Assembly: GCF_055900595.2 (NCBI RefSeq)
Contig: NZ_CM148325.1
Length of the DNA: 64,000 nucleotides
Strand: one strand, 5' to 3'
Part shown: piece by piece, positions 19,582-49,791 of the stretch
Position numbering within the stretch: position 1 is the stretch's first letter
How the letters are laid out: each line of letters opens with the position of its first letter
Program-made: the position numbers and the translations under genes
Notes under the pieces: model-generated
The model's input: the letters and a program-made list of their open reading frames with translations, nothing else
The model's database searches: none
Told to the model about the DNA's origin: nothing

Positions 19582-20391
19582 ATGGAAAAGAAAATCGGTT
19601 TTATTGGCTGCGGCAATATGGGAAAAGCCATTCTCGGCGGTCTGATTGCCAGCGGTCAGGTGCTTCCAGGGCAAATCTGGGTATATACCCCCTCCCCGGA
19701 TAAAGTCGCCGCCCTGCATGACCAGTTCGGCATCAACGCCGCAGAATCGGCGCAAGAAGTGGCGCAAATCGCCGACATCATTTTTGCCGCCGTTAAACCA
19801 GGCATCATGATTAAAGTGCTTAGCGAAATCACCTCCAGCCTGAATAAAGACTCTCTGGTCGTTTCTATTGCAGCAGGTGTCACGCTCGACCAGCTTGCCC
19901 GCGCGCTGGGCCATGACCGGAAAATTATCCGCGCCATGCCGAACACTCCCGCACTGGTTAATGCCGGGATGACCTCCGTAACGCCAAACGCGCTGGTAAC
20001 CCCAGAAGATACCGCTGATGTGCTGAATATTTTCCGCTGCTTTGGCGAAGCGGAAGTAATTGCCGAGCCGATGATCCACCCGGTGGTCGGTGTGAGCGGT
20101 TCTTCGCCAGCCTACGTCTTTATGTTTATCGAAGCGATGGCCGACGCCGCCGTGCTGGGCGGGATGCCACGCGCCCAGGCGTATAAATTTGCCGCTCAGG
20201 CGGTAATGGGTTCCGCAAAAATGGTGCTGGAAACGGGAGAACATCCGGGGGCACTGAAAGATATGGTCTGCTCACCGGGAGGCACCACCATTGAGGCGGT
20301 ACGCGTACTGGAAGAGAAAGGCTTCCGTGCCGCAGTAATCGAAGCGATGACGAAGTGTATGGAAAAATCAGAAAAACTCAGCAAATCCTGA
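19582..20391 (+). CDS. proC: pyrroline-5-carboxylate reductase ProC
   Basis: ORF track 19474..20391; start at [14 protein letters not shown] with RBS ggagtgagg upstream (269 aa). Confidence 0.95.
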
Positions 20392-20407
20392 TGATTTTTG
20401 CCGGACG

Positions 20408-21523
20408 TCAGGCCGCCACTTCGGTGCGGTTACGTCCTGCTTTCTTTGCTTTGTAGAGCGCCAAATCTGCCGATTTCAACCACTCCCGATAGTGACTCAT
20501 TTGTGGATTCAGCGGCGCAACCCCCACACTAATCCGTAATGTTACCTGTGGCGTATTCGGCAAACGTAACGTGTTTAGCCCTTCATGCACCCGTAACATG
20601 GCGGTAATGGCGCTCTCAGCTGGCGTACCGGACATGATCACCGCAAACTCATCGCCGCCAAACCGACCAATCACATCGCTACCGCGCAGGGTTATTTGTA
20701 ACTGTCGGGTAAGCGCCACAATCGCTTCATCGCCCACATCATGGCCCCAGGTATCGTTGATGCTCTTGAAATGGTCGATATCGATAATCAGTAATGTCGC
20801 ATCGCGGTTATGCCGCCGACAGTTATCAAATTCATTGCGTAACATCGTTTCCCAATGACGTCGGTTATACACGCCCGTCATACCGTCGCGGGTACTCATG
20901 ACCTGCAACCTGCGTTTATGTTCCGCCAGTTTAGTCGCCGTCTGGTAGCTGACCCAGCCAAACAGCAGAGGATAAATGACGATAATGGGAAGGGAGAGCC
21001 ACCATTCCAGCGGCGCACTATTGAACGACACGGTGATACCCGTCAGTTCGAGGGTGACAAGGCAGGAAACCACCATCAACACCAGACCCGCGACAAACAA
21101 ACGGGGGCCGCCTGCCCCCATCAAATTCAGACACATAATCATCAACATCGCGGTGGAAGGCAGCACGTTTACGCCCATTACGCCTACCCACATTCCCGCT
21201 AATACTGCATCGGTTTTTAAGTTATAAATTTCCCGGCTAAGCGGATCGACAGCCCTACTCGCAATCTGCCAGGCTAAATGCGGCCAGACGAACGCCCAGC
21301 CGACCAACACCAGCCACCACCAGCCCGGCGGCGGGTGCGAAACCAGCGTTGAAGCAATCGGTAAGAACATGCCAGCCAGGCCAACCGCGCGGGGTAGTCT
21401 GACGCGACGGGCGAAGCGCAGCCCGGACCGCTGATGTTCGTTTTGAGGAGTTAAAGGAGGTTCCTCCCCATGCGCCGCCGCTTTTTTGAAAAAGTTTTCA
21501 TCATTCATTATTTTTGGGAACAT
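20408..21523 (-). CDS. dgcC: diguanylate cyclase DgcC (AdrA/YaiC), MASE2 + GGDEF
   Basis: ORF track, 371 aa; GGDEF motif RFGGDEF present. Confidence 0.92.
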   Translation of the reverse strand: MFPKIMNDENFFKKAAAHGEEPPLTPQNEHQRSGLRFARRVRLPRAVGLAGMFLPIASTLVSHPPPGWWWLVLVGWAFVWPHLAWQIASRAVDPLSREIYNLKTDAVLAGMWVGVMGVNVLPSTAMLMIMCLNLMGAGGPRLFVAGLVLMVVSCLVTLELTGITVSFNSAPLEWWLSLPIIVIYPLLFGWVSYQTATKLAEHKRRLQVMSTRDGMTGVYNRRHWETMLRNEFDNCRRHNRDATLLIIDIDHFKSINDTWGHDVGDEAIVALTRQLQITLRGSDVIGRFGGDEFAVIMSGTPAESAITAMLRVHEGLNTLRLPNTPQVTLRISVGVAPLNPQMSHYREWLKSADLALYKAKKAGRNRTEVAA

Positions 21524-28745: not shown

Positions 28746-29096
28746 ATGCACTCCTGCTAACTTCTTATCGTTTTAACAACTGCTGTGTATTAACCGCATG
28801 ACCGCTACAAAGAATCAGCCAAATGAAACCGCCCATTGTGACCCATAGCAAGGCGCATAGTTCGCCAGCCTGACCATAAGAATTGTTTCGACGGATTTCA
28901 CAAACCAAAGATTGTTTACATTAGCGGATTAACACGCGCAGGATCACAAATGCAGGCATTGGTGAGCAGGAAAAAGATCGTGTTTACGCGCCGTTACGTT
29001 TTTAACACTATTATTGCACTAATTCGCCCTTTGCAATCCATCAATGAGTAGTATAAATACGCTCAGTTACCTTCATTCAATCTATGGACACCACCG

Positions 29097-30254
29097 TTGA
29101 AACGTAGTCTGCTTTTTTCTGCCGTGCTTTGTGCGGCGTTATTGACCCCCGTCCATGCGGCGCAGCCGATCACTGAACCGGAGTTCGCCTCTGATATTGT
29201 CGATCGTTATGCCGATCATATTTTTTATGGCAGTGGTGCCACGGGGATGGCGCTGGTTGTTATCGACGGTAACCAGCGCGTCTTTCGCAGTTATGGCGAA
29301 ACGCGCCCGGGTAATAATGTTCGCCCGCAGCTGGATTCGGTCGTGCGTATTGCTTCGCTTACCAAGCTAATGACCAGTGAGTTGCTGGTGAAATTGCTCG
29401 ACCAGGGGACCGTGAAGTTAAACGATCCGCTAAGTAAATATGCTCCACCAGGCGCACGCGTGCCGACTTACAATGGCACGCCTATTACCCTGGTGAATCT
29501 GGCAACCCATACCAGTGCCCTGCCCCGTGAACAGCCGGGAGGTGTGGCACATCGTCCAGTGTTTGTCTGGCCAACGCGCGAGCAACGCTGGAAATACCTT
29601 TCTACGGCGAAGCTGAAAGCCGCGCCAGGCAGTCAGGCGGCATACTCTAACCTTGCGTTCGACCTGCTGGCAGATGCACTGGCGAATGCTTCCGGCAAGC
29701 CTTATACCCAGTTGTTTGAAGAGCAGATTACCCGTCCATTGGGGATGAAAGACACCACCTACACCCCCTCGCCGGACCAGTGCCGCCGTTTAATGGTTGC
29801 AGAGCGCGGTGCCAGTCCATGCAATAACACGCTGGCGGCAATTGGCAGCGGCGGAGTCTATTCCACGCCTGGCGATATGATGCGCTGGATGCAGCAATAT
29901 TTGTCATCTGATTTTTATCAGCGCAGTAACCAGGCAGATCGTATGCAGACGTTGATTTATCAGCGCGCGCAGTTTACGAAAGTGATTGGCATGGATGTCC
30001 CCGGCAAAGCGGATGCGCTTGGTTTAGGCTGGGTATATATGGCCCCGAAAGAGGGTCGTCCGGGGATTATTCAGAAGACAGGTGGTGGTGGCGGTTTCAT
30101 TACCTATATGGCGATGATCCCGCAGAAGAATATTGGCGCGTTTGTGGTGGTTACTCGTTCGCCATTGACGCGCTTTAAAAATATGAGCGATGGCATCAAT
30201 GACCTGGTGACTGAACTGAGCGGGAATAAACCGTTGGTCATCCCCGCGTCCTGA
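29097..30254 (+). CDS. ampH: D-alanyl-D-alanine carboxypeptidase/endopeptidase AmpH (class C beta-lactamase fold), apparent TTG start
   Basis: ORF track, 385 aa, MKRSLLFSAVLCAALLTPVHA signal peptide, SLTK active-site motif; start codon read as ttg. Confidence 0.92.
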   Translation: MKRSLLFSAVLCAALLTPVHAAQPITEPEFASDIVDRYADHIFYGSGATGMALVVIDGNQRVFRSYGETRPGNNVRPQLDSVVRIASLTKLMTSELLVKLLDQGTVKLNDPLSKYAPPGARVPTYNGTPITLVNLATHTSALPREQPGGVAHRPVFVWPTREQRWKYLSTAKLKAAPGSQAAYSNLAFDLLADALANASGKPYTQLFEEQITRPLGMKDTTYTPSPDQCRRLMVAERGASPCNNTLAAIGSGGVYSTPGDMMRWMQQYLSSDFYQRSNQADRMQTLIYQRAQFTKVIGMDVPGKADALGLGWVYMAPKEGRPGIIQKTGGGGGFITYMAMIPQKNIGAFVVVTRSPLTRFKNMSDGINDLVTELSGNKPLVIPAS

Positions 30255-30937
<683 letters not shown>

Positions 30938-30951
30938 AACCTATTTCTTCA

Positions 30952-33912
<2,961 letters not shown>

Positions 33913-34437
33913 TTGTCATCCCTCCTCAGGGACGTAATAAGTTGATCCATCAATTATCAATGCATAGAAAACATATTATGTTTCGCGTTTACGATTATGC
34001 GGCGTTATAGAGGAATGGTTCAATTATTCTTTCCCCTAAGTCCGATTGCGGACATATATAAAGCACGTGAACACACACACAGAAAGAAATAACAAAAACA
34101 CAATATTTCAATACGTTAATGAAAGCGTTAATTTTAAAACATAGACCATGAAAATATAAAACAACTAAAACAGACAAATAATCTATCAATAACCAATGAA
34201 CTTTACGTTATTCACTTTTTGAAAACGTCACCAAATCCCCAAAAACAATAATCTATAGCTATAAATAAAAATTAAAAATATTTTCAATGAATATAAATTT
34301 ATTGCTATTTCTATTACAAAGATGTCCTGACCTCTCATTCATTCTCTTCTTATCAACATCACGACAACTTTCGTAAAACATCCCCACCCTGCTTCAGGTA
34401 TACTATGCTCCTCGATTCCACAAACATCAGGCAGACC

Positions 34438-35412
34438 ATGACAGACCTAATCCAACGCCCTCGTCGCCTGCGCAAATCTCCTGCGCTGCGCGCTATGTTT
34501 GAAGAGACAACACTTAGCCTTAACGACCTGGTGTTGCCGATCTTTGTTGAAGAAGAAATTGACGACTACAAAGCCGTTGAAGCCATGCCAGGCGTGATGC
34601 GCATTCCAGAGAAACATCTGGCACGCGAAATTGAACGCATCGCCAACGCCGGTATTCGTTCCGTGATGACTTTCGGCATCTCTCACCATACCGATGAAAC
34701 CGGCAGCGATGCCTGGCGGGAAGATGGTCTGGTGGCGCGTATGTCGCGCATCTGTAAACAGACCGTGCCAGAAATGATCGTCATGTCAGACACCTGCTTC
34801 TGTGAATACACTTCTCACGGTCACTGCGGTGTGCTGTGTGAGCATGGCGTGGACAACGACGCGACCCTGGAAAATTTAGGCAAGCAGGCCGTGGTTGCAG
34901 CTGCTGCAGGTGCAGACTTCATCGCCCCTTCCGCCGCAATGGATGGCCAGGTACAAGCGATTCGCCAGGCGCTGGACGCTGCGGGCTTTAAAGATACGGC
35001 GATTATGTCGTATTCGACCAAGTTCGCCTCCTCCTTTTATGGCCCGTTCCGTGAAGCTGCCGGAAGCGCATTAAAAGGCGACCGCAAAAGCTATCAGATG
35101 AACCCAATGAACCGTCGTGAGGCGATTCGTGAGTCACTGCTGGATGAAGCCCAGGGCGCAGACTGCCTGATGGTTAAACCAGCCGGAGCGTACCTCGACA
35201 TCGTGCGTGAGCTGCGTGAGCGTACTGAATTGCCGATTGGTGCGTATCAGGTGAGCGGTGAGTACGCGATGATTAAGTTCGCTGCGCTGGCGGGTGCTAT
35301 AGATGAAGAAAAAGTGGTGCTCGAAAGTTTAGGTTCGATTAAGCGTGCGGGTGCGGATCTGATTTTCAGCTACTTTGCGCTGGATCTGGCTGAGAAGAAG
35401 ATTCTGCGTTAA
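34438..35412 (+). CDS. hemB: porphobilinogen synthase HemB
   Basis: ORF track 34405..35412; start placed at [18 protein letters not shown] (324 aa). Confidence 0.95.
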
Positions 35413-35420
35413 TGATCATT

Positions 35421-35446
35421 ATGCCGGGTTATCCAACCCGGCATTT
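35421..35446. terminator. hairpin between convergent hemB and tauD (gccgggtt-atcc-aacccggc), likely bidirectional terminator
   Basis: Perfect 8-bp inverted repeat with 4-nt loop in the 39-bp gap between the convergent stop codons. Confidence 0.55.
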
Positions 35447-35451
35447 CCCCC

Positions 35452-36303
35452 TTACCCCGCCCGATAAAACGGTTTATCCCCAAGAATCGTCGCCCGATGC
35501 ATAATCCGCCGCTGTGGCAGGTAATCCGCATTGGCATAGTGCTGGGTCACGCGGTTATCCCAAATCGCGATATCATTTGGTTGCCAGCGCCAACGCACCT
35601 GAAACTCCGGTTTAATGATGTGGGCAAACAAAAAACCTAACAAGGCTTCGCTCTCTTTCTCGCTGACATCAACAATTCGTGTGGTAAAACCTTCGTTCAC
35701 AAACAGCGCCTGTTTACCGGTCACCGGATGCGTTCGCACAACCGGATGGAGTAACGGTGGATTTTTCGCGACCGCCTCGCGCCAGCGTTGATGCTCCTCC
35801 TCCGTTTTGCGGTATTTGTATTCCGGGAACGATTTACGGAAATCATGCTCCGCACGCAGCCCGCTCAACAGCTGGCGGAAGGGAACAGAGAGCGCCTCAT
35901 AGGCCGCAATGCCGCTGGTCCAGAGCGTATCGCCGCCAGTCGAGGGTAACTCTTTCGCCGCCAGAATCGCCCCTGCGGGTGGCGTTTCAATAAATGTCAC
36001 ATCGGTGTGCCAGTTGTCGTTATCCGGCGGATTATCGTTATGGGTATCCAGGACGATGATCTCGTCAACCCCTTCGGCATGAGGGTAAACAGGATGAATA
36101 TGCAGTTCGCCAAAACGCTGGGCCAGCGCGCGTTGCTGCTGCGGTGTAATGGCTTGTTCACGCACAAATACCACCTGATGGCGCAGTACCGCATGGTAAA
36201 GCTGTTCAAACTGATTATCGCTTAACGGACGCGTCAGGTCGGCACCCGAAATTTGTGCACCGATATACGGCCCCAGCGGGGTAATGCTCAGACGTTCACT
36301 CAT
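35452..36303 (-). CDS. tauD: taurine dioxygenase TauD
   Basis: ORF track, 283 aa, [23 protein letters not shown]. Confidence 0.95.
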   Translation of the reverse strand: MSERLSITPLGPYIGAQISGADLTRPLSDNQFEQLYHAVLRHQVVFVREQAITPQQQRALAQRFGELHIHPVYPHAEGVDEIIVLDTHNDNPPDNDNWHTDVTFIETPPAGAILAAKELPSTGGDTLWTSGIAAYEALSVPFRQLLSGLRAEHDFRKSFPEYKYRKTEEEHQRWREAVAKNPPLLHPVVRTHPVTGKQALFVNEGFTTRIVDVSEKESEALLGFLFAHIIKPEFQVRWRWQPNDIAIWDNRVTQHYANADYLPQRRIMHRATILGDKPFYRAG

Positions 36304-37127
36304 TGTACTTCTCCATGCCAGGGCGTCAGGCGGCGCTGTAACGCGCGCAGACCCAGTTCTAAAAGAAAGGCGATAATCGCAATCACCGCGATCCCCGCCA
36401 GCACCACGTCAGTCGCGAGAAATTCACCCGCTGACTGGACCATAAAACCCAAACCGCGCGTCGCGGCAATCAACTCCGCCGCCACCAGGGTAGACCAGCC
36501 CACACCCAGACCAATGCGTAATCCAGTGAGAATTTCCGGCAGCGCACCGGGCAAAATAACAAACCACAGTACCTGTGTGCGGCTGGCCCCCAGCGACTGA
36601 GCGGCACGAATGCGAACCTGCTGCGCGCTTTTCACCCCCGCCAGCGCCGACATCGCCACAGGTGCAAAAATCGCTAAATAGATCAGTAAGATCTTCGAGG
36701 TTTCACCAATACCAAACCAGATCACCATCAGCGGCAAATAAGCCAGCGGCGGCACCGGACGATAAAGCTCGATTATCGGATCCAGAATGCCGCGCACCGT
36801 CGGGCTTAGCCCCATGGCGATCCCGACCGGAATACCGATCAACACCGCCGCGAGTAGCGCCAGCAAAATGCGCGTCAGGCTGGCTGCCAGATGCTGCCAC
36901 AGCGTGGCATCCATAAATCCCTGCGGCCCGGCAATGGTGAGCAGTTTTGCCAGTACCTGTTGCGGCGGCGGCAGAAACAGCGGGCTAATCAGTTGCAGCG
37001 CCGCCACCGCCCACCATACCGTGAGTAAAACCGCTAACGTGCCAATGCTTAAGGTCACCTGACGCGAGAGCGGCCAGCGCCATTTCAGCCGATGCGAATG
37101 CAGTTTTTCATTAATGAGCACACTCAT
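36300..37127 (-). CDS. tauC: taurine ABC transporter permease TauC
   Basis: ORF track, 275 aa; 4-bp overlaps with tauB and tauD. Confidence 0.93.
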
Positions 37128-37891
37128 GAGAACGCCTCCCGTTGCTCAAATACGCGGCTTAAAACATATTCGCGCATGGCGATGAATTGTGAATCGGACT
37201 TGATGCTGCGGCTCGACTCTCCCGCAACAAAGCGGCGAGCAAAGTTGAGCGGCAGCCGTTCCAGCACACGACCTGGACCAGGCGACAGCAAAACCAGTTC
37301 GGTTGCCATAAACACTGCTTCTTCTATATCGTGGGTAATCAACAGCACCTGCTTTCCCGTCTCCTGCCAGAGTTTCAGCAGCAGGGTTTGCATCTGGTCG
37401 CGGGTGAAGGCGTCCAGCGCACCAAACGGTTCGTCGAGTAATAACAGCTGGGGATTTGCCGCCAGCGCGCGGGCAATCCCTACCCGCTGACGTTGACCGC
37501 CGGAAAGCTGCCAGATATAGCGTTTTTCTGCGCCTTCCAGCCCCACTTTTTTCAGCATCTGGTGCGCGATTTCCAGGCGCTGTACTTTCTCTACACCTGC
37601 CAGTTGCAGGCCGAATGCCACGTTGTCTACCACATTACGCCACGGCAACAGCCCTTCATTCTGAAAAACCACGCCCCGCTCTGCGCCCGGTCCCTCAATG
37701 CACTTACCCGCCAGTTGAATGCTGCCATGCTGATAAGGCACAAAACCGGCAATCAGATTCAGCAAGGTGGTTTTGCCGCAGCCAGACGGTCCCAGAACCA
37801 CCAGAAGCTCGCCGCTTTCCAGCGTCAGGTTGATATCTTCCAACGCCGGTTTGCCGCCATAATCGGCGTAAAGATGAGAGATTTGCAGCAT
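37124..37891 (-). CDS. tauB: taurine ABC transporter ATPase TauB
   Basis: ORF track, 255 aa; Walker [10 protein letters not shown], signature LSGGQRQR. Confidence 0.95.
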
Positions 37892-37903
37892 CTGCGCCTC
37901 CTT

Positions 37904-38866
37904 TTATTGCACGAAGCGCGAGGTCACGTACTGGCTGTAATCATTCGCCACGGCAGGGACTTTGCCCTGATCTTTCAAAAACTGCGCGGTATCGATGATC
38001 GCTTTATTCACCGGTCCGGTCAGTTCTGCCGTTTGCTGCTGCGGTGTCAGATAGGTATTCCCCTTCACAAGCCCCGGAACGTCACCTTCCGGCACACCGC
38101 TTAAACGCGCCAGTTTGCTGATGTTTTCCGGCTGTTTCAGCCACGCGTCTGGGTTAGCAATGTACGGTTGCTGAGCATCGATGGCGCTTTTAGCGAACGC
38201 TTTCACGACTTCAGGATGTTTCTCGGCAAAATCTTTCCGCACGACCCAGACGTCCAGTGTCGGCGCGCCCCACTGCCCGACCTGTTCGGAATCAGTCAAC
38301 ACCTTGCCGTCTTTTTCCAGTGCGTTAACCGCCGGTGCCCAGACATAAGCACCATCAATGTCTCCCCGCTGCCAGGCGGCGATAATCGCAGGCGGCTGCA
38401 GGTTCACAATCTCCACTTGCCCGGGTTTAATGCCCCAGTGTTTCAGCGCCGCCAGCAAGCTGTAATGCGTGGTGGAGATAAACGGTACGGCAATGCGTTT
38501 GCCAATGAGATCTTCGGGTTTGCTGATGGTTTTCTTCACCACCAGCGCTTCGGAGTTACCCAGTTTTGACGCCAGCAAGAAGACCTCAATCGGCACCTGT
38601 TGGCTGGCTGCAACCGCTAATGGGCTGGAACCGAGGTTGCCGATTTGCACATCGCCAGAAGCCAGTGCCCGCACGATGCTGGCCCCGCTGTCAAACTTAC
38701 GCCAGTCCACGGTCGCCCCGCTCTCTTTAGCAAAGGTGTTATCGGCCTGAGCCACTTTCGCCGGTTCGGCGGAAGTTTGATAGGCCACGGTGACGTTCAC
38801 TGCCTGCACCTGAAAAGCGATGAATACCAGTGCGGCAAGAAGTGTGTTACGCGATGAAATTGCCAT
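37904..38866 (-). CDS. tauA: taurine-binding periplasmic protein TauA
   Basis: ORF track, 320 aa, MAISSRNTLLAALVFIAFQVQA signal peptide. Confidence 0.95.
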   Translation of the reverse strand: MAISSRNTLLAALVFIAFQVQAVNVTVAYQTSAEPAKVAQADNTFAKESGATVDWRKFDSGASIVRALASGDVQIGNLGSSPLAVAASQQVPIEVFLLASKLGNSEALVVKKTISKPEDLIGKRIAVPFISTTHYSLLAALKHWGIKPGQVEIVNLQPPAIIAAWQRGDIDGAYVWAPAVNALEKDGKVLTDSEQVGQWGAPTLDVWVVRKDFAEKHPEVVKAFAKSAIDAQQPYIANPDAWLKQPENISKLARLSGVPEGDVPGLVKGNTYLTPQQQTAELTGPVNKAIIDTAQFLKDQGKVPAVANDYSQYVTSRFVQ

Positions 38867-39168
38867 GATTGTCTGCTCCCCTGTCTTGTTATGGGAGCAG
38901 TATTTCGTTGCGGGTCAGTTTGATAAAGGAATTAAAACGTCTTGTTAAGAACAAAGCGTTTTTAGAAAAAAACTGGCAATGGTTAGCGAGTTTACGCATT
39001 TTGCAGCTTGGGCGAATGTAGCATGCCGATTCACAAACCAGATCAGATGTTCGCTCTCCGGCAAATTATTGCCATTTTGTTACATCCATTCCATATCTGT
39101 CGCTGGTAGATTGCCAGCGCCGCGCCGTGATGCATGATAGGAGAATGAGATAATAAGAGAAGAAAAGT

Positions 39169-39798
39169 ATGATTAGGGTTGTGCTGGTGGATGACCATGT
39201 GGTGGTGCGCTCTGGCTTCGCACAGTTACTCTCTCTGGAAGACGATCTGGAGGTCATTGGTCAGTACAGTTGTGCCGCGCAGGCATGGTCGGCATTAACT
39301 CATAATGACGTTAATGTTGCCGTCATTGATATCGCCATGCCGGACGAAAATGGCCTCAGTCTGCTTAAGCGTCTGCGTGCACAAAAACCGCAATTCCGCG
39401 CCATTATTCTTAGCATTTATGACACGCCAACCTTTGTACAAAGCGCTCTGGATGCTGGTGCCAGCGGCTATTTGACCAAACGCTGTGGGCCGGAAGAGTT
39501 AGTGCAGGCGGTGCGCTCGGTCGGGATGGGCGGGCATTATCTCTGCGCCGATGCAATTCGGGCTTTACGCGGCGGCGGGCAACCCGCCCAGGCGTTGGAA
39601 ATTCTCACCCCACGAGAACGTGAAGTGTTTGATTTATTAGTCAAAGGCGACAGTGTCAAAGAGATCGCCTTTAAGCTCGAACTCAGCCATAAAACGGTAC
39701 ATGTACATCGCGCCAACGTGCTGGGAAAACTGAACTGTCATAGCACCATTGAGCTGGTGCATTTTGCACTCAATCACCATCTGCTGGCGGGGCATTAA
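39169..39798 (+). CDS. UhpA-like NarL/FixJ-family response regulator (paralog, not the canonical uhpA)
   Basis: ORF track, 209 aa; receiver domain with conserved Asp residues and C-terminal LuxR-type HTH; close resemblance to UhpA from memory. Confidence 0.85.
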   Translation: MIRVVLVDDHVVVRSGFAQLLSLEDDLEVIGQYSCAAQAWSALTHNDVNVAVIDIAMPDENGLSLLKRLRAQKPQFRAIILSIYDTPTFVQSALDAGASGYLTKRCGPEELVQAVRSVGMGGHYLCADAIRALRGGGQPAQALEILTPREREVFDLLVKGDSVKEIAFKLELSHKTVHVHRANVLGKLNCHSTIELVHFALNHHLLAGH

Positions 39799-41339
39799 TG
39801 TCGCGTAACCTTCGTCATTGGGTGATTTCGCTGTTTATTGTGCTGGCCTGGGGAAGCGGCTGGCTGATGTTGTGGACGCTCAGCTTTTATCTGACCAATA
39901 ACGGTCAACAGGCAGTGTTATTTCTGCCGCACGGAGTTTACCTCGCTCTTCTTATTTTGCTCTCTCGCCGTTACTGGCCTGCGTTGGTGCTCCCCCCTTT
40001 GCTGATGATGTTCTGGCTGCACAGCGAGCAACTGTTGAACGGCTATCTCATGCTGGCAACGCCGGTTATTAGCCTGCTTCCTGCCATCCTTGCACAAAAC
40101 GTCTGGCACCGTTTTCCACTTTACTGGCAGCGTCTGACGTTGCTGTTAGCCTCAGTAACAGCAGCTTCATTGCTGAATACAGCCATGCTAACCCCTTTTA
40201 TGTCAGGCCCAATAATGCTGCCCGGTCTGACCTCATTTACCGGCGGCGTATTGTTGACGCCGTTTGTCTATCTCATCTTTGAGTTTCTGCGCCAGCAGCA
40301 TCGCTATCAGCTTCTGAGACTCGATACGCATAATCCCCCCTTGCGAACCTCTTTAATCATCTGGTGTAGCCTATTTTTTATTATTGGTATCGGCACCCAG
40401 ATGGTGTTGTCGCCTGAAATCGAACGCCTGCTGCTGATCGTGGTATTTCTACCCAATGTGGTCATGGCCTGGAAATTTGGCTGGCAAGGTGGCGTACTCT
40501 CGGGGCTTTTGGGCAGCATGATGATCACTATTGCCCGCCAGATTGGCGTGGGCTTTAGTAACCTGGTGGAACTGGAGATTTTTCTCGCAACCCAGGCATT
40601 GCTGGGAATTGGCCTGGGCATTGCCATCAGTCGCCAGCAACATCTGGCGCTAAACCTGCATCATTACCGTCAGCGACTGGAGGCAGAACTGGCAGCACGG
40701 CGGGCATTGGCTGAAAAGCTGATCCACACCGAGGAAGACACGCGTAAAAGCCTGGCTCGCGAGCTGCACGACGAAATCGGTCAGAACATTACCGCCATTC
40801 AGATCCAGTCGCAACTGGTGACGCGGGCACGCGATCCGGCGCAAGTTCATTCCGCAGCCAGCCAAATCAACGAACTCGCCCGCCGCATTCATCTCTCCAC
40901 CCGCCAGTTGCTGCGCCAGTTGCGGCCACCCGCGCTTGATGAACTGACATTCCGCGAAGCATTACTTCATCTGATTAATGAATTTGCCTTTAGTGAACGC
41001 GGCATTCATTGCCAGTTTACCTATCAACTAACCACCACGCCAGAAAACGAAACGGTTCGCTTTACACTGTATCGGTTATTGCAGGAGTTACTCAATAACG
41101 TCTGTAAACACGCCGAAGCCAGCGAAGTGACGATTATTCTGCGCCAGCAGGGAGAGATATTGCACCTGGAGGTCAGCGACAACGGTATAGGAATCGCCAG
41201 CGGGAAAATGACCGGATTTGGCATTCAGGGGATGCGTGAACGCGTCAGTGCCCTGGGCGGCGACTTAACGCTCGAAAAACATAACGGTACGCGAGTAATT
41301 GTTAACCTGCCCACATTTTTGCAACAAATCGCCGGATAA
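39798..41339 (+). CDS. UhpB-like sensor histidine kinase (multi-pass membrane N-domain + HisKA_3/HATPase)
   Basis: ORF track, 513 aa; H-box LARELHDEIGQ; 1-nt start/stop overlap (TAATG) with the upstream regulator gene. Confidence 0.85.
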   Translation: MSRNLRHWVISLFIVLAWGSGWLMLWTLSFYLTNNGQQAVLFLPHGVYLALLILLSRRYWPALVLPPLLMMFWLHSEQLLNGYLMLATPVISLLPAILAQNVWHRFPLYWQRLTLLLASVTAASLLNTAMLTPFMSGPIMLPGLTSFTGGVLLTPFVYLIFEFLRQQHRYQLLRLDTHNPPLRTSLIIWCSLFFIIGIGTQMVLSPEIERLLLIVVFLPNVVMAWKFGWQGGVLSGLLGSMMITIARQIGVGFSNLVELEIFLATQALLGIGLGIAISRQQHLALNLHHYRQRLEAELAARRALAEKLIHTEEDTRKSLARELHDEIGQNITAIQIQSQLVTRARDPAQVHSAASQINELARRIHLSTRQLLRQLRPPALDELTFREALLHLINEFAFSERGIHCQFTYQLTTTPENETVRFTLYRLLQELLNNVCKHAEASEVTIILRQQGEILHLEVSDNGIGIASGKMTGFGIQGMRERVSALGGDLTLEKHNGTRVIVNLPTFLQQIAG

Positions 41340-41411
41340 CCAGGAAAAAGTCTTAGGCATCCCGGATTTTCTCTCATCCTCTTTCACTTTCATTTTCATA
41401 TAGTCAGCAAC

Positions 41412-42728
41412 ATGGAGACGACCATGCACGCACGTTCAGCGAGAGAGATTAATCAATGCTACCGGACATTACGTCCGCGATTGCTGATGTGCATGATTAT
41501 TGGCTACGCCGCATTTTATCTGACGCGAAAAAGCGTGAATTACGTCCTTCCGGCGCTGCAAACCGACCTCGGACTGGATAAAGGCGACATTGGCCTGCTG
41601 GGTTCGCTGTTTTATCTCAGCTACGGATTGTCGAAATTTACCGCCGGACTGTGGCATGACAGCCACGGACAACGCGGTTTTATGGGCGTCGGCTTGTTCG
41701 CCACTGGGCTATTGAACATGGTGTTTGCCTTTGGCGAATCACTTACGCTTCTGCTTGTGGTCTGGACACTGAACGGTTTTTTTCAGGGCTGGGGATGGCC
41801 ACCGTGTGCCCGCTTACTGACCCATTGGTACTCCCGTAATGAACGTGGTTTCTGGTGGGGCTGCTGGAATATGTCGATCAACATTGGCGGAGCGATTATT
41901 CCGCTGATTAGCGCCTTTGCCGCCCACTGGTGGGGCTGGCAGGCCGCGATGCTGACACCGGGGATTATCAGCATGGCATTAGGGATCTGGTTAACGCTAC
42001 AGCTTAAAGGCACACCCCAGGAAGAGGGATTACCGACGGTGGGTCAGTGGCGTCACGATCCGCTGGAATTACGTCAGGAACAACAAAGTCCGCCGATGGG
42101 GCTGTGGCAAATGTTGCGAACCACAATGCTGCAAAATCCGATGATCTGGCTGCTGGGTGTCTCTTATGTACTGGTTTATGTGATCCGGATTGCGCTAAAC
42201 GACTGGGGCAATATCTGGCTGACGGAAAGCCACGGCGTCAACCTACTCAGCGCCAACGCCACGGTAATGCTGTTTGAAGTGGGCGGCTTACTCGGCGCGT
42301 TATTTGCCGGATGGGGTTCGGATTTGCTGTTTAGCGGGCAGCGAGCCCCCATGATTTTGCTGTTTACCCTTGGGTTGATGGTTTCGGTCGCTGCACTCTG
42401 GTTGGCACCGGTTCATCACTATGCCCTTCTGGCTGTGTGCTTTTTTACTGTGGGCTTTTTTGTCTTTGGCCCGCAAATGCTGATTGGACTTGCGGCAGTG
42501 GAATGTGGACACAAAGCTGCGGCGGGTTCAATTACCGGATTTCTCGGCCTGTTCGCCTATCTCGGTGCGGCGCTGGCAGGCTGGCCGTTGTCGCTGGTTA
42601 TCGAACGCTACGGCTGGTCAGGAATGTTCAGTTTACTCTCGGTCGCCGCAGTACTTATGGGTTTACTGCTGATGCCGTTACTGATGGCGGGCATCACCAC
42701 CACTCACGCTCGAAGGATAAAACAATGA
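41412..42728 (+). CDS. UhpC-like MFS sugar-phosphate sensor/transporter (organophosphate:Pi antiporter family)
   Basis: ORF track, 438 aa; strong resemblance to UhpC/UhpT (e.g. FFQGWGWPPCARLLTHWYSRNERG). Confidence 0.85.
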   Translation: METTMHARSAREINQCYRTLRPRLLMCMIIGYAAFYLTRKSVNYVLPALQTDLGLDKGDIGLLGSLFYLSYGLSKFTAGLWHDSHGQRGFMGVGLFATGLLNMVFAFGESLTLLLVVWTLNGFFQGWGWPPCARLLTHWYSRNERGFWWGCWNMSINIGGAIIPLISAFAAHWWGWQAAMLTPGIISMALGIWLTLQLKGTPQEEGLPTVGQWRHDPLELRQEQQSPPMGLWQMLRTTMLQNPMIWLLGVSYVLVYVIRIALNDWGNIWLTESHGVNLLSANATVMLFEVGGLLGALFAGWGSDLLFSGQRAPMILLFTLGLMVSVAALWLAPVHHYALLAVCFFTVGFFVFGPQMLIGLAAVECGHKAAAGSITGFLGLFAYLGAALAGWPLSLVIERYGWSGMFSLLSVAAVLMGLLLMPLLMAGITTTHARRIKQ

Positions 42729-43756
42729 AAATGCCCCTTACCTCTACTCTGATTGCTTCTGCCGTTGCGCTGGCAACCTTAACGGGTGCCGCACAAGCGA
42801 AAGGTCGACTGGTGGTCTATTGCAGCGCCACTAATGAAATGTGTGAGACCGAAACCAAAGCGTTTGGCGAGAAATATGATGTGAAAACCTCGTTTATCCG
42901 CAACGGCTCCGGTAGCACCCTGGCAAAAGTCGATGCTGAAAAGAAAAACCCACAGGCTGACGTCTGGTACGGCGGCACCTTAGACCCGCAGTCGCAGGCC
43001 GGCGAGATGGGCCTGTTACAGGCATATAAATCGCCTAACCTTGAACAGATCATGGAAAAATTCCGCGATCCGGCAAAAGTGAAAGGAAACCTTTCCTCCG
43101 CCGTTTATGTGGGGATCCTCGGGTTTGGCGTCAACACAGAGCGTCTGAAAGAGAAAAACCTGCCTGTGCCGAAGTGCTGGAAAGATCTCACCAAACCTGA
43201 ATATAAAGGCGAAATTCAGATTGCCGATCCACAAAGTTCCGGTACCGCCTACACCGCGCTGGCTACCTTTGCGCAGCTGTGGGGGGAAGATCAGGCCTTT
43301 GATTATCTAAAACAACTTAACACCAACGTCTCCCAGTACACCAAATCAGGCATTGCCCCGGCACGTAACGCCGCCCGCGGCGAAACGGCGATTGGTATTG
43401 GCTTCCTGCATGACTACTCGCTGGAAAAAGAACAGGGTGCGCCGCTGGAGTTGATTTCCCCGTGTGAAGGTACGGGCTACGAAATTGGCGGCGTCAGCAT
43501 TCTGAAAGGCGCGCGCAACCTCGACAACGCCAAACTGTTTGTGGACTGGGTATTATCAAAAGAAGCTCAGGAACTGGCGTGGAAGAAAGGGAAGTCTTAT
43601 CAGATCCTGACCAATACCACCGCCGAAACGTCGCCAAATTCGCTGAAGCTCGACGACCTGAAATTAATCAACTACGACATGGATAAATACGGTTCCACGG
43701 ATGTTCGTAAGGCATTGATTAATAAATGGGTCAGCGAAGTGAAGATGGGTAAATAA
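42725..43756 (+). CDS. afuA: AfuA/FbpA-type periplasmic substrate-binding protein of an ABC importer
   Basis: ORF track 42437..43756; start placed at MKMPLTSTLIASAVALATLTGAAQA (signal peptide); ATGA overlap with the preceding gene. Confidence 0.85.
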   Translation: MKMPLTSTLIASAVALATLTGAAQAKGRLVVYCSATNEMCETETKAFGEKYDVKTSFIRNGSGSTLAKVDAEKKNPQADVWYGGTLDPQSQAGEMGLLQAYKSPNLEQIMEKFRDPAKVKGNLSSAVYVGILGFGVNTERLKEKNLPVPKCWKDLTKPEYKGEIQIADPQSSGTAYTALATFAQLWGEDQAFDYLKQLNTNVSQYTKSGIAPARNAARGETAIGIGFLHDYSLEKEQGAPLELISPCEGTGYEIGGVSILKGARNLDNAKLFVDWVLSKEAQELAWKKGKSYQILTNTTAETSPNSLKLDDLKLINYDMDKYGSTDVRKALINKWVSEVKMGK

Positions 43757-43824
43757 ACCCGCATTGCGTGCATTTGCCGGGCGCAGCACAAACGCCTGCC
43801 CCGGCCAACCATACCGGAACTGCT

Positions 43825-45903
43825 ATGTCACAGACACTTGCACTCCATCCCGTGAAAAAGCGGGATGCGATTTTCCTTTGGGTTTTGCTGGGCTGGCTGG
43901 CATTTATCCTGTTGCCGAGCTGGAGCCTCGATTATGGCCTGCTGGAGTCCACGAGTGATGAGATCCTCGAGGCTTATGGCTGGTCGCATTTTAATATCAG
44001 CTGGCTGTGGTATTTATTACCGAGTCTGTTGCTGGTTCGTCCGTTTCGTGAGGCCACACGCGAACAGCGTAGTCGTCATTATTTTGATGCCAGTTGGGCA
44101 TTGCTCTGTATGGCGTTTATCGTCATCAGCGCCACCGTGGCTGGACGCGGTTTAGGCTACGCCGCCATCGTGCTGTTTATCGAATTAAGCGCGATAATGA
44201 CGCTGGCCTTAACCCGCCTCGAATGGCTGGGTGGCGACCGCTTTGTGATCGGCTCGCTGATTGCGATTGTGGCGCTGATTGGCATTTTTATCGTCTGGCC
44301 GAGCATCGCCATTTTTATCCCGATGTTCACCAACGACGCGGGAGAGTTCGCCCCACTGGCGTTTATGAATGTGCTCTCGCAGGCCCATATCATTCAGGTG
44401 ATCGTCAACTCTATCGTCTTATCGATAGCGGTGGGTATTGGCTGTACTTTCTTCGGTCTGGTGCTGGCGATATATACCACGCGCATCGCTAAACGCAGCG
44501 CCGTAATCGGCCGCATCTTTTCCATTCTGCCAATTGTCACGCCACCGTTTGTGGTCGGCTTAGGCGTTACGCTCATGATGGGGCGCTCCGGCTACATAAC
44601 GGAATTTATGGTGGAGTGGTTTGGGCTGACCAACACCAACTGGCTGTATGGTTTTACCGGGATCTGGCTGGCACAGGTCCTGGCATTTACGCCAATGGCT
44701 TTTATGATCCTCGATGGGGCCATTAAAACCATTCATCCCTCGCTGGAAGAAGCCTCCTACACCCTGCGCGCCAGCCGCTGGCAAACCTTTAACGGTGTGT
44801 TTGTGCCGTTGTTAAAGCCCGCGCTTGCCAATGCCTTTTTAATCGTTGTGGTGCAGTCACTGGCTGACTTCAGTAACCCGCTGGTGCTTGGCGGCAACTT
44901 CGACGTACTGGCGACGCAAATTTACTTCTACATTACCGGCTCGCAGCTGGATTATCAGGCCGCCAGCACCCTTGGCGCTTTCCTGCTGCTGTTCTCGCTA
45001 CTGGTGTTCTGCGTCCAGTATATGTGGATTGGTAAACGCTCTTACGTCACGGTTTCCGGAAAGTCCTACCGCGGCGATGTCCAGCCACTACCGGTCACCC
45101 TGGTGTGGAGCGTGGTCGCCATACTTGCGATATGGATTGCCTTTAACGCCCTGCTCTATGGCAGCATTTTCTACGGCAGCTTCACTGTGAACTGGGGCGT
45201 TGACTACACCCTGACGCTGGATAACTTTATCAAGTTATTTGGTCAGGGGATGAGCGACGGCGCGTGGCCTTCACTGTTAGATACCTTGCTCTACGCCGGG
45301 ATTGCCGCCCCCATTACCGCTATCTTTGGCCTGCTCATCGCCTGGGTGGTGGTGCGCCAACAATTCAAAGGCAAAAAGACCATAGAGTTCACCACCATGT
45401 TGTGCTTTGCCGTACCGGGTACAGTGGCGGGTGTCTCGTATATTCTTGCCTTTAATAGCGCCCCGGTCTATCTCACCGGAACGGCAGCAATTGTGATTAT
45501 TTCGATGGTGATGCGCAACGTTCCGGTGGGTATTCGCGCCGGGATTGCAGGTCTGGGGCAGATCGACAAATCGCTGGATGAAGCCTCACTTAGCCTGCGT
45601 GCGGGTTCCCTGCGAACCATTACGCACATTTTACTGCCGTTGTTACGCCCAGCTATTCTCTCGGCCCTGATTTACAGCTTTGTGCGGGCTATCACGACGG
45701 TCAGCGCCATCGTCTTTCTCGTCACGCCGGACACACGCGTGGCAACCGCCTACATCCTTAACCGCGTAGAAGACGGCGAATATGGCGTAGCCATCGCCTA
45801 CGGTTCGATTCTGATCGTGGTGATGCTGGCGATTATTTTCCTCTTTGACTGGCTGATCGGTGAAGCACGTATTTCCCGTTCTAAAGCCAAAAACCAGGCG
45901 TAA
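43825..45903 (+). CDS. afuB: AfuB/FbpB-type fused two-domain ABC permease
   Basis: ORF track 43768..45903; start placed at MSQTLALHP (692 aa); many transmembrane segments. Confidence 0.85.
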
Positions 45904-45914
45904 TGGAGCGCACT

Positions 45915-46961
45915 ATGAGTCAGAAAAATTTTGTGGAACTGCGCAACGTCACTAAACGATTCGGCAGTAATAGGGTTATCGACAATATCAATCTCACCAT
46001 CCCACAAGGGCAAATGGTGACGCTGCTCGGTCCTTCCGGATGCGGCAAAACCACCATTCTGCGTCTGGTTGCCGGGCTGGAAAAACCGAGCGAAGGGCAA
46101 ATTTTTATAGATGGCGAAGATGTCACGCATCGTTCCATTCAGCAACGCGATATCTGCATGGTGTTTCAGTCATACGCTCTGTTCCCACATATGTCGCTGG
46201 GCGAAAACGTTGGCTATGGGCTGAAAATGCTTGGCGTGTCGCGTAGTGAAGTGAAGCAGCGGGTGAAAGATGCGCTAGCAATGGTGGATCTGGAAGGATT
46301 CGAAGACCGCTATGTCGACCAGATTTCCGGTGGTCAGCAACAGCGTGTGGCTCTGGCCCGTGCGTTGATCCTTAAGCCTAAAGTGCTGCTGTTTGATGAG
46401 CCGTTAAGTAACCTCGATGCCAACCTGCGTCGCAGCATGCGCGATAAAATCCGCGAGCTGCAAAAGCAATTTAACATCACTTCGCTCTATGTGACTCACG
46501 ATCAAAGTGAAGCTTTCGCGGTGTCCGACACCGTGTTGGTGATGAATAAAGGTCACATCATGCAGATTGGTTCACCGCAGGATCTCTATCGTCAGCCCGC
46601 CTCCCGCTTTATGGCAAGTTTTATGGGCGACGCCAACCTGTTCCCGGCGAACTTTAGCGAAGAGTATGTCGATATCTACGGTTATCGCCTGCCGCGCGCG
46701 GCGCATTTCCCGGCGCAAGGTAGCGGCACCGTCGGCGTTCGCCCGGAAGCCATCACCTTAAGCAATCACGGCGAAGAGAGTCAGCGTTGTGTTATTCGCC
46801 ATGTCGCCTACATGGGGCCGCAGTACGAAGTGACCGTAGAATGGCATGGTCAGGAGATTTTATTGCAAGTCAACGCCACCCGTTTACAGCCCGATATTGG
46901 TGAGCACTATTACCTCGAAATCCATCCTTACGGGATGTTTGTTTTAGCGGATGCGGCATAA
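45915..46961 (+). CDS. afuC: AfuC/FbpC-type ABC ATPase
   Basis: ORF track 45903..46961; start at [12 protein letters not shown]; Walker [10 protein letters not shown], signature ISGGQQQRV. Confidence 0.88.
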
Positions 46962-46973
46962 AAATAGCACATA

Positions 46974-47003
46974 AACGGTCCCAACCTGTCTTGAGGGACC
47001 GTT
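46974..47003 (+). terminator. possible afuC terminator hairpin (aacggtccc ... gggaccgtt)
   Basis: 9-bp perfect inverted repeat 13 bp after the afuC stop; trailing T-run is weak. Confidence 0.45.
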
Positions 47004-47042
47004 CACCTGTTTAGACGTCGGACAACAATTATTCTCAGGTGT

Positions 47043-47097
47043 TATATACTATAGGGGGGTATGCATTGACATATAGCATACCCCCCTATAGTATATT
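47043..47097 (+). promoter_or_regulatory. frmR promoter/operator: long perfect palindrome atatactataggggggtatgc ... gcatacccccctatagtatat
   Basis: About 21-bp inverted-repeat arms around a central attgacatata, immediately upstream of frmR; consistent with a FrmR operator. Confidence 0.7.
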
Positions 47098-47120
47098 GCG
47101 TGCAGATGATGAGGTGCGAA

Positions 47121-47396
47121 ATGCCCAGTACTCCGGAAGAGAAGAAAAAGGTCCTTACTCGAGTTCGTCGTATTCGGGGGCAAATTGATGCTCTGGAACG
47201 GTCGCTGGAGGGTGATGCCGAATGCCGTGCCATACTCCAACAGATCGCTGCCGTTCGGGGCGCGGCTAACGGGCTGATGGCAGAAGTGCTTGAAAGCCAT
47301 ATCCGGGAAACGTTTGACCGAAATGACTGCTACAGCCGCGAAGTCAGCCAATCCGTTGACGACACTATTGAACTGGTTCGTGCCTATCTTAAATAG
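47121..47396 (+). CDS. frmR: formaldehyde-responsive repressor FrmR
   Basis: ORF track 47100..47396; start placed at [21 protein letters not shown] (91 aa). Confidence 0.92.
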
Positions 47397-47400
47397 CTGA

Positions 47401-48540
<1,140 letters not shown>

Positions 48541-48632
48541 TTTCCCGCAGGTTTTACCCCGTCCAGTTCAGGCGGGGTTATTAATACTCTCCCCGGGCAG
48601 CCGTCCGGGGATTAACCATGAGATAATGACTG

Positions 48633-49466
48633 ATGGAACTCATTGAAAAACATGCCAGCTTTGGCGGCTGGCAAAATGTGTATCGGCATTATTCCCAATT
48701 ACTGAAATGTGAAATGAATGTCGGCGTCTATCTCCCACTAAAAGCCGGGAATGAAAAATTGCCGGTACTGTACTGGCTTTCGGGCCTGACCTGTAACGAG
48801 CAGAATTTCATTACTAAATCGGGGATGCAACGTTACGCGGCTGAGCACAACATTATTGTTGTTGCGCCAGACACCAGTCCGCGAGGCAGTCATGTCGCAG
48901 ATGCCGACCGTTATGATCTCGGGCAAGGTGCCGGGTTTTACCTGAACGCAACGCAAGCGCCGTGGAATGAACATTACAAAATGTATGATTATATCCACAA
49001 CGAGCTGCCGGATTTAGTGATGCAACATTTTCCGGCAACGGAAAGAAAGTCAATCGCGGGTCATTCAATGGGCGGCCTGGGCGCGCTGGTGCTGGCGTTA
49101 CGTAACCCAGATGAATATGTCAGCGTCTCGGCATTTTCGCCCATTGTCTCCCCATCGCAAGTACCGTGGGGACAGCAAGCCTTTGCCGCGTATCTTGGTG
49201 AAAATAAAGAAACCTGGATGGATTACGATCCGGTGAGCCTTATTTCACAAGGTCAACGCGTTGCGGAAATCATGGTTGATCAAGGATTGAGTGATGATTT
49301 TTACGCAGAACAGCTGCGGACTCCAAATCTTGAAAAGATCTGCCAGGAGATGAATATCAAAACGTTAATCCGTTATCACGAGGGTTATGATCACAGCTAT
49401 TATTTTGTCTCCAGTTTTATTGGCGAGCATATTGCCTACCACGCCAATAAACTGAATATGCGTTGA
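48633..49466 (+). CDS. frmB: S-formylglutathione hydrolase FrmB
   Basis: ORF track, 277 aa, MELIEKHASFGGWQNVYRH; GHSMGG esterase motif. Confidence 0.95.
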   Translation: MELIEKHASFGGWQNVYRHYSQLLKCEMNVGVYLPLKAGNEKLPVLYWLSGLTCNEQNFITKSGMQRYAAEHNIIVVAPDTSPRGSHVADADRYDLGQGAGFYLNATQAPWNEHYKMYDYIHNELPDLVMQHFPATERKSIAGHSMGGLGALVLALRNPDEYVSVSAFSPIVSPSQVPWGQQAFAAYLGENKETWMDYDPVSLISQGQRVAEIMVDQGLSDDFYAEQLRTPNLEKICQEMNIKTLIRYHEGYDHSYYFVSSFIGEHIAYHANKLNMR

Positions 49467-49790
49467 GCATCCGCGCACGCCAGCCGGATGCGGCGTGAAC
49501 GCCTTATCCGCCTACATTTCGCCCATAAACCGTAGGCATGATAAGACGCGCATAGCGTCGCATCAGGCATCTGCGCACAGCTGCCGGATGCGGCGTGAAC
49601 GCCTTATCCGCCTACATTTCGCCCATAAACCGTAGGCATGATAAGACGCGCATAGCGTCGCATCAGGCATCTGCGCACAACTGCCGGATGCGGCGTGAAC
49701 GCCTTATCCGGCCTACATTTCGCCCATGAGCCGTAGGCATGATAAGACGCGTCAGCGTCGCATCAGGCATCTGTGCACGGCTTATCGATG
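49467..49790. repeat. BIME-type array: about three tandem copies of a ~100-bp unit, each with paired REP palindromes
   Basis: Unit ctgccggatgcggcgtgaacgccttatccgcctac...gtaggcatgataagacgcg...gcatcaggcatctgcgcaca repeated with a few substitutions. Confidence 0.8.
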
Positions 49791-49791
49791 A

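Follow-up and report, generated by a model that had tools for sequence, protein, structure and literature searches.

A covarying hairpin antisense to the last codons of iprA and its probable role in forming the 3' end of ampH mRNA

The genes ampH and yaiV converge tail to tail within the 64,000-nucleotide stretch of DNA analysed here (the window), and their coordinates, with those of the other features discussed below, are collected in Table 1. AmpH matches the Pfam Beta-lactamase family (PF00144, E = 1e-67). The gene yaiV is currently named iprA (hydrogen peroxide resistance inhibitor) in RefSeq, and we use that name here; residues 138-205 of IprA constitute a winged-helix HTH_46 domain (Pfam PF15977, E = 5e-31). 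The open frame of iprA reaches 30923 (ORF 30255..30923, minus strand), beyond the RefSeq start at 30878, and the methionine that begins the 207-residue protein is the start in all IprA orthologues.

Positions 30250-30259 of the plus strand read cc-tga-tta-at. The ampH stop is the TGA at 30252-30254 and the iprA stop is the TAA at 30257-30255 of the minus strand, seen as TTA at 30255-30257 on the plus strand, with zero bases between the two. A preliminary description of this DNA had claimed that the two stop codons abut directly, and this is borne out by the sequence, by the list of open reading frames and by the RefSeq annotation of E. coli. The closest E. coli strain and a K-12 derivative are annotated with the same abutment, as is MG1655 (iprA 394506..395129, ampH 395130..396287), and the 2-kb region is 95-99% identical in 5,420 of 5,426 complete E. 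coli genomes. That description had also named the one finding that would count against it, namely a true stop lying further upstream in either gene. The C-terminal residues of both proteins are conserved, IprA ending in RLPxEY and AmpH mostly in PAS, so neither stop is an artefact of ORF calling and each lies where it is annotated. Every E. coli annotation already shows the abutting stops, which are unremarkable in themselves.

Table 1. Features at the ampH/iprA junction, in window coordinates
Feature	Position	Strand	Description	Basis
ampH CDS	29097..30254	+	385 aa, DD-carboxypeptidase/endopeptidase	ORF list and RefSeq annotation of syntenic E. coli, same coordinates
iprA (yaiV) CDS	30255..30878	-	207 aa with the RefSeq start	ORF list and RefSeq annotation
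Abutting stop codons	30252..30257	.	TGA/TTA, no spacer	Sequence; tight junction kept across loci
Conserved stem-loop	30264..30300	+	16 bp	Folding, conservation, covariation, synonymous constraint
U-rich tract	30297..30307	+	UUUAUUCAUUU, at and past the 3' base of the stem	Sequence and fold
Predicted ampH 3' UTR	30255..30309	+	About 51-55 nt	Position of hairpin and U-tract
Mirror hairpin for iprA (rejected candidate)	30215..30248	-	-16.8 kcal/mol, z = -1.5	

To place the junction in its family context we recovered 80 loci with IprA relatives, one genome per species, and ampH is convergent with iprA in every one of these 80 loci recovered via iprA. In six of them one gene is frameshifted or truncated, and gaps were counted in the other 74, which belong to the Enterobacteriaceae. 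The stop-to-stop gap is -4 nt (a TTAA overlap) in 15 of these intact loci, 0 nt in 13, 1 nt in 12, 2 nt in 14, 3-5 nt in 12 and 13-17 nt in six, with single loci at 39 nt and at 44 nt. It thus lies between -4 and +5 nt in 66 of the 74 and is no greater than 17 nt in 72. A near-zero gap across loci of the Enterobacteriaceae indicates an old and maintained feature rather than an accident of one genome. Ten convergent gene pairs in the syntenic genome region have gaps of 0, 16, 39, 57, 77, 102, 120, 131, 182 and 226 nt; the ampH/iprA junction is the tightest among these ten pairs, yet it stands at the end of a continuum. It is most likely an ordinary kind of gene junction, furnished with a dual-coding solution.

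A little beyond the ampH stop, the plus strand can fold into the stem-loop listed in Table 1, which is antisense to iprA codons 194-205 (KGKLVAINRLPS) and so lies within the last 15 codons of that gene. An 8-bp core pairs 30267-30274 with 30290-30297 (AGGCAAAC/GUUUGCCU), an apical stem pairs 30275-30279 with 30284-30288 around a loop at 30280-30283, and A30289 is bulged. Read in the ampH sense, the hairpin is UGAAGGCAAACGGUUG-AUAG-CAACC-A-GUUUGCCUUUA. The codons that form the stem encode K G K L V A I N R L P S, the wing of the HTH_46 winged-helix domain. The plus strand folds with a free energy of -21.2 kcal/mol (z = -6.0), and none of 200 shuffled sequences folds as well; the minus strand of the same palindrome folds at -18.0 kcal/mol (z = -5.4) and is followed by CAGAGUAUUAAUCAGG. 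A simple terminator scan reported only the 5-6 bp apical part, in a number of hits not above that in shuffled sequences, and the full stem was recovered only by folding. Searching positions 29000-31100 on both strands with Rfam covariance models gave no match at E <= 1.

The two strands present this palindrome in different settings. In ampH RNA the stem starts about 10 nt (9-12) past the TGA, in untranslated RNA, and the U-rich tract at its 3' base holds 8 U in 11 nt, an interrupted tract that is antisense to iprA codons E191-M192-N193-K194. A ribosome terminating at the ampH stop could, by virtue of its footprint, partly occlude a stem that starts 9-12 nt downstream. On the minus strand the stem lies inside the iprA frame, ends 7-10 nt ahead of the TAA and lacks a U-tract. 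The extent of the predicted ampH 3' UTR in Table 1 assumes termination 7-9 nt past the stem. A mirror hairpin for iprA, located in the last ampH codons just past the iprA stop, was also considered; it is limited to Escherichia and some Citrobacter, most genera lacking it, and it is unsupported as a functional element.

We aligned the last 23 iprA codons, gap-free, from 79 sequences. The ampH-sense hairpin is present in 78 of the 79, with a median free energy of -18.8 kcal/mol as against roughly -5.4 kcal/mol in other 39-nt windows of iprA; a value of -14 kcal/mol is reached by only 2.4% of these control windows. On the ampH-sense strand the 8-bp core is paired in 622 of 624 alignment cells, and its pairs are maintained through changes on both sides. 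Pair 13-43 in the ampH sense is A-U in 44 sequences, G-C in 32 and G-U in one, and pair 19-37 is A-U in 56, G-C in 19 and G-U in three. The latter joins the third position of Lys196 with the third position of Arg/His202 (at codon level A/T 56, G/C 20, A/C 3, G/T 0), and the arms covary, with Lys196/Arg202 passing from AAA/CGT to AAG/CGC. Pair 19-37 needs at least 10 state changes on a neighbour-joining tree of the remaining iprA sequence, which indicates that the double switch has been repeated. At least seven A-T to G-C switches in the stem are counted on a tree, and pair 16-40 shows one full C-G to U-A switch. One lineage carries GGT...TTA. As a register control we slid the 3' partners by 1-3 columns, and pairing fell from 86% to 28-56%.

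Synonymous variation in the same codons gives a concordant picture. Synonymous diversity is 0.05 at Gly195 (0.63-0.75 at other Gly codons in iprA), 0.06 at Asn201 (0.28-0.51 at other Asn codons), 0.23 at Leu203 and 0.27 at Leu197 (0.57-0.81 at other Leu codons), 0.43 at Arg202 (0.51-0.80 at other Arg codons) and 0.51 at Pro204 (0.70-0.73 at other Pro codons). The stem codons thus have the lowest synonymous diversity in iprA for their amino acid. Diversity this low is beyond the reach of protein constraint and points to selection on nucleotide structure. The hairpin is kept by compensatory evolution across the Enterobacteriaceae.

A palindrome is available for folding on either strand, and the substitutions reveal which strand carries the better-preserved structure. 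Pairing of the core drops from the value given above for the ampH strand to 604 of 624 cells on the iprA strand, and among core cells changed on one side only, 19 read G·U in the ampH sense, hence A·C in the iprA sense, versus one of the reverse kind. Pair 20-36 is instructive: a CTG-to-TTG change at Leu197, which would be synonymous and leave a wobble on the iprA strand but break pairing on the ampH strand, is found in no sequence, and the change of Arg202 to His, which keeps U·G on the ampH strand, arose about five times. The pairs of the apical stem are for the most part G·U or U·G in the ampH sense and mismatches in the iprA sense. Over all 16 pairs, 86.0% of cells are paired on the ampH strand versus 74.8% on the iprA strand. 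The ampH-sense fold is the more stable in 60 of the 79 sequences (mean -19.1 versus -16.7 kcal/mol for the iprA sense), and control windows of iprA have no such strand bias (-5.4 versus -5.9 kcal/mol). This asymmetry in pairing and in stability identifies the ampH-strand RNA as the better-preserved structure. The iprA-sense hairpin is nevertheless still stable and may have a role on its own strand.

These results bear directly on the possibility that the palindrome has no function in RNA, being a by-product of the IprA wing KGKLVxINRLP or else a DNA binding site, with the zero gap a neutral outcome. The arms do encode conserved HTH_46 residues, and protein reasons alone limit non-synonymous variation in both of them. 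However, protein constraint cannot explain the choice of synonymous third positions and the covariation between them, or why synonymous diversity is tenfold lower at Gly195 and Asn201; G·U-type changes confined to one strand would not be tolerated in a DNA palindrome; and the loss of pairing in the slid registers tells against this reading as well. It is already strongly disfavoured, and we find it scarcely credible. Known binding sites in the vicinity (HusR, CyuR and FlhDC) all lie off the junction: the HusR SELEX peak named "yaiV" falls within yaiT at MG1655 393,934, some 1.2 kb distant, the CyuR motif is upstream of iprA, and the FlhDC site is at the ampH/sbmA promoter.

The tract that follows the stem is more variable than the stem itself. 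Counting nine bases from the second position past the 8-bp core, we find 5-7 U in 49 of the 79 sequences, from Escherichia, Citrobacter, Kluyvera and related genera. In an Enterobacter-like clade the same stretch begins CGGCUCAUAUU and has 2-3 U in nine, which amounts to no U-tract, and the hairpin there is retained with its stem lengthened by G-C pairs. Given this clade, what is conserved may be a role in protecting the 3' end or in pausing, and not intrinsic termination of the classical kind. Where the U-tract is present, the iprA codons under it favour A-ending or A-rich synonyms (Asn193 AAT 25:3, Lys194 AAA 46:8, Glu191 GAA 32:6), and this bias is consistent with selection for U on the opposite strand.

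Two lineages with unusually long spacers offer a further comparison. Buttiauxella brennerae has a 39-nt spacer with a canonical bidirectional terminator (GCAGGUCGGUGCACCGGCCUGC plus UUUCUUUAUU), ordered as an A-tract, then GCAGGUCGG-UGCA-CCGGCCUGC and finally UUUCUUUAUU, and its in-gene hairpin has decayed to -5.6 kcal/mol, the sole such lineage among the 79 sequences. In Salmonella enterica subsp. diarizonae the spacer is 44 nt long and has a hairpin of its own followed by AUUUUUG, yet the in-gene hairpin is kept as well. Since both are present there, the relation between a spacer terminator and the in-gene hairpin is not absolute.

A hairpin at a convergent junction might serve both genes. 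Ju et al. 2019 and Wang et al. 2022 have described overlapping bidirectional terminators; were this hairpin one of them, polymerases arriving from ampH and from iprA would both pause at it, and head-on collisions would fix both 3' ends around it. The likeness to such terminators is that one hairpin at a convergent junction is foldable on both strands, stably so in the window and, as the means above indicate, across genera, and that the transcripts would overlap across it. There is also no other terminator near the junction, the candidate on the iprA side being weak and unconserved. In the collision model a hairpin at the overlap is required and a canonical U-tract is not (bioRxiv 10.1101/2022.10.23.513370), and the model would therefore explain why the hairpin is kept in the Enterobacter clade. 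Yet the ampH/iprA hairpin differs in lying upstream of the iprA stop, in translated RNA, and not in a shared 3' UTR. With the stem ending so close ahead of the TAA, an end right after the stem on the iprA strand would fall at or before the stop codon and leave an iprA transcript without one, a non-stop mRNA. Translating ribosomes should moreover melt the stem on that strand, and the substitutions favour one strand, keeping the ampH-sense pairing in the 19-to-1 ratio of G·U-type changes. Finally, both genes are apparently weakly expressed (the normalized RNA-seq value of ampH is about 108; PMC4183435), and collision termination is more efficient for highly than for weakly expressed pairs (bioRxiv 10.1101/2022.10.23.513370). 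We regard a bidirectional terminator as rather unlikely here, though worth keeping in view.

Published transcriptome data bear on the ampH strand. In TERMITe, Adams 2021, Choe 2022, a Rend-seq annotation paper, Dar and Sorek 2018, Conway 2014 and SMRT-Cappable-seq, with their supplements covered in part, we found no ampH/yaiV 3' end. Adams et al. 2021 (PMC7815308, Supplementary file 2) place a region of Rho termination on the ampH strand; its best position, MG1655 395316, corresponds to about 30068 in the window, 186 nt before the ampH stop. Upon treatment with bicyclomycin, reads in the 800-nt downstream window rise from 57 to 247 and those in the upstream window from 56 to 98 (Rho score 2.48, p = 5e-5; PMC7815308). 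The downstream window extends over the 3' end of ampH and the whole of antisense iprA, and the rise in reads implies that Rho limits ampH-strand RNA across this region. The Rho signal shows either that termination at the hairpin is incomplete or that other transcripts are involved. It fits a leaky hairpin terminator with Rho as back-up, and it also fits Rho termination followed by trimming to the hairpin, Rho-terminated transcripts being typically processed by 3'-to-5' exonucleases (Adams et al., PMC7815308).

Trimming could in principle be the whole of the matter: Rho would end ampH transcription inside antisense iprA, exonucleases would trim the RNA back, and the stem-loop would act as a stability element that sets the mature 3' end. 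The mature ends of Rho-dependent transcripts are reportedly set in just this way, by exonuclease trimming to a stable stem-loop. Like the stem-loops at Rho-terminated mRNA ends (Dar and Sorek 2018), the ampH hairpin is stable, sits near a gene end and has a Rho signal nearby on the same strand (Adams 2021); unlike them it has a U-tract in Escherichia and could terminate alone. Conservation of the hairpin in the Enterobacter clade, which has no U-tract, is in keeping with a role in stability, as is the score of the Rho termination region. Against such a role stand the U-rich tract that follows the stem in Escherichia, Citrobacter and Kluyvera and the bias toward A in the codons beneath it, which a pure stability element would not need. 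We consider this account unlikely, and it overlaps with the one we prefer rather than excluding it.

Observation establishes the abutment and a hairpin with covarying arms, constrained synonymous sites and an asymmetry between strands. From these we infer termination at the hairpin: our preferred reading, which we hold to be probable though well short of certain, is that the hairpin is a 3'-end-forming element (an intrinsic terminator) of ampH mRNA, embedded antisense in iprA. RNA polymerase transcribing ampH would pass the TGA, transcribe the 16-bp stem-loop 10 nt further on and then the UUUAUUCAUUU tract, and in Escherichia the hairpin and tract would together act as a Rho-independent terminator of ampH. 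The ampH mRNA would thereby acquire a 3' UTR some 50 nt long, lying antisense to iprA codons 190-207. Read-through transcripts would probably be stopped by Rho deeper in antisense iprA, and trimming may then bring their 3' ends back to the hairpin, which would shield them. In iprA mRNA the palindrome would have no such effect, as it lies in a translated frame and has no U-tract, and ribosomes should keep it melted. Transcription of iprA is instead expected to run past its own stop into antisense ampH, where its transcripts would likeliest be ended by Rho acting on untranslated antisense-ampH RNA.

The proposed element resembles the intrinsic terminators of E. coli in having a GC-containing stem (16 bp with its A-U base counted), a 4-nt loop and a folding energy of about -21 kcal/mol, followed in the window by a U-rich tract, and in standing just past the ampH stop. 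It differs from them in lying wholly inside an opposing coding sequence and in having a U-tract that is interrupted, and absent in Enterobacter-like lineages. The preliminary description had supposed that genes with back-to-back stops leave no room for terminators. That supposition does not hold, for a terminator-like hairpin with a U-rich tail, marked by covariation and synonymous constraint, is accommodated in the last 15 codons of iprA itself. The arrangement looks like an evolved limit on read-through and not a licence for interference.

In a more elaborate version of this idea, the conserved palindrome would couple the two genes as a strand-selective switch gated by translation. Here ampH would be terminated only in untranslated RNA and folding on iprA mRNA would depend on ribosome traffic, such that iprA, which encodes an oxidative-stress regulator, might through its level or its translation modulate the read-through and stability of ampH, which encodes a peptidoglycan hydrolase, or the reverse. 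We think such a switch improbable; if real, it would explain why a zero-spacer convergent arrangement is kept throughout the Enterobacteriaceae.

It had further been argued at the outset that the two transcripts must overlap at their 3' ends, and for the case in which both genes are transcribed this is correct: there is no intergenic DNA, and any 3' UTR of one gene is antisense to the other. On the predicted ampH 3' UTR the overlap would be at minimum about 50 nt, set against iprA codons 190-207. Such overlap is, however, common. Among the 370 convergent E. coli operons of Conway 2014 (PMC4161252), 276 overlap at their 3' ends, by a mean of 286 nt. With overlap at 75% of convergent operons whatever their spacer, a zero gap is not needed for overlap, nor is it diagnostic.

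This bears on the suggestion, made in the preliminary description, of possible antisense interference between ampH and iprA. Spelled out, the abutment would exist to create reciprocal interference, or would create it inevitably, through polymerase collision or RNase III cleavage of the duplex, as an excludon-like unit. Geometry does force an overlap of about 50 nt or more if both genes are on, the two are convergent in every locus recovered through iprA, and convergent 3' overlaps are common, with some authors proposing a regulatory role for them (PMC4161252). But synteny within one bacterial family is to be expected anyway, the zero gap is undiagnostic for the reason just given, and the conserved element would limit read-through rather than extend the overlap. 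We found no published expression data in which ampH and iprA behave reciprocally. Reciprocal interference therefore seems to us very unlikely.

The convergent overlapping units ilvA/ilvY and dnaQ/rnh (cited in PMC4161252) are similar in being tail to tail with little or no spacer and in having mutually antisense 3' ends, and ampH/iprA likewise resembles 4-nt TTAA tail-to-tail overlaps, a form that this very pair takes in Kluyvera, Pseudocitrobacter and some Enterobacter (gap -4). What sets ampH/iprA apart from such units is that, beyond the overlap alone, it has a structure conserved by covariation inside one of the partners.

The ampH/iprA hairpin opens no long-standing question. It is a new and well-supported example of a known arrangement, one in which a protein-coding sequence doubles as a predicted terminator for the opposite strand, here backed by covariation. 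Terminator predictors and gene finders that are restricted to intergenic DNA will miss elements of this sort, and dips in synonymous rate at gene ends can flag functional RNA structures on the antisense strand. A further consequence is that 3'-end formation of ampH is likely to be altered when iprA/yaiV is deleted or "silently" recoded, for instance in knock-out collections or by codon optimisation. The intergenic terminator that appears to be missing from this junction would not be missing at all, but encoded antisense in the winged-helix codons of iprA, where it constrains synonymous choice family-wide.

The ampH coding sequence contains a strong predicted hairpin of its own, distinct from the main hairpin past the gene's stop codon, which lies inside iprA. 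This internal element is followed by UUUAAAAAUAUG and the ampH stop codon lies approximately 80-120 nucleotides beyond it. Its position is shortly downstream of a Rho termination region mapped at MG1655 coordinate 395316, equivalent to approximately position 30068 of the window (Adams et al., 2021; PMC7815308). At its other end, the annotated ampH ORF of 385 amino acids begins with a TTG codon at position 29097, and the coordinates of ampH are identical in the RefSeq annotation of the closest strain. Among the ten convergent junctions annotated in the syntenic region, the spacer separating proC and adrA (dgcC) ranks as the second tightest.

Further features of the window
Feature	Position	Strand	Details
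proC-adrA (dgcC) convergent junction	20390-20411		16-nt spacer, tga-tgatttttgccggacg-tca
Hairpin within ampH coding sequence	30135-30174	+	GGCGCGUUUGUGGUGG...CGCCAUUGACGCGC, -23 kcal/mol, z = -3.2
Autotransporter ORF, yaiT/ehaB locus	30964-33912	-	intact, 982 aa (ORF list)
Highly AT-rich segment	33950-34400		G+C 0.28-0.31, GC skew strongly negative

In Citrobacter amalonaticus S646, the 3' end of ampH holds a G+C-rich, highly structured insertion of 157 nucleotides that substitutes for the AmpH C-terminus. The former ampH end remains flush against the iprA stop codon.

On its upstream side iprA is adjoined by the autotransporter ORF of the yaiT/ehaB locus, a gene that is intact in the window and whose K-12 counterpart is a pseudogene split by IS3. 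The AT-rich segment upstream of the autotransporter gene is presumably its regulatory region. Past approximately 32 kb the window and RMDEC465, the closest listed strain, lose collinearity and, over the roughly 32000-50000 interval compared, ORFs of the size expected for mhp genes are offset roughly 6-8 kb later in the window. This displacement, read from ORF sizes and positions, implies a putative insertion or additional genes in the window, relative to RMDEC465, somewhere between 32 and 50 kb.

In a comparison with three relatives' loci (L003, L004 and L005), the window's IprA shows 100% identity to its counterpart in Escherichia sp. E1V33, 99.5% to the one in Escherichia sp. MOD1-EC7003 and 98.6% to the E. 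whittamii protein, while the 2-kb region used for the genome comparison matches typical E. coli at only about 96.8%. Judged from these sequence identities, the source of the window may be either a cryptic Escherichia clade or a divergent lineage of E. coli.
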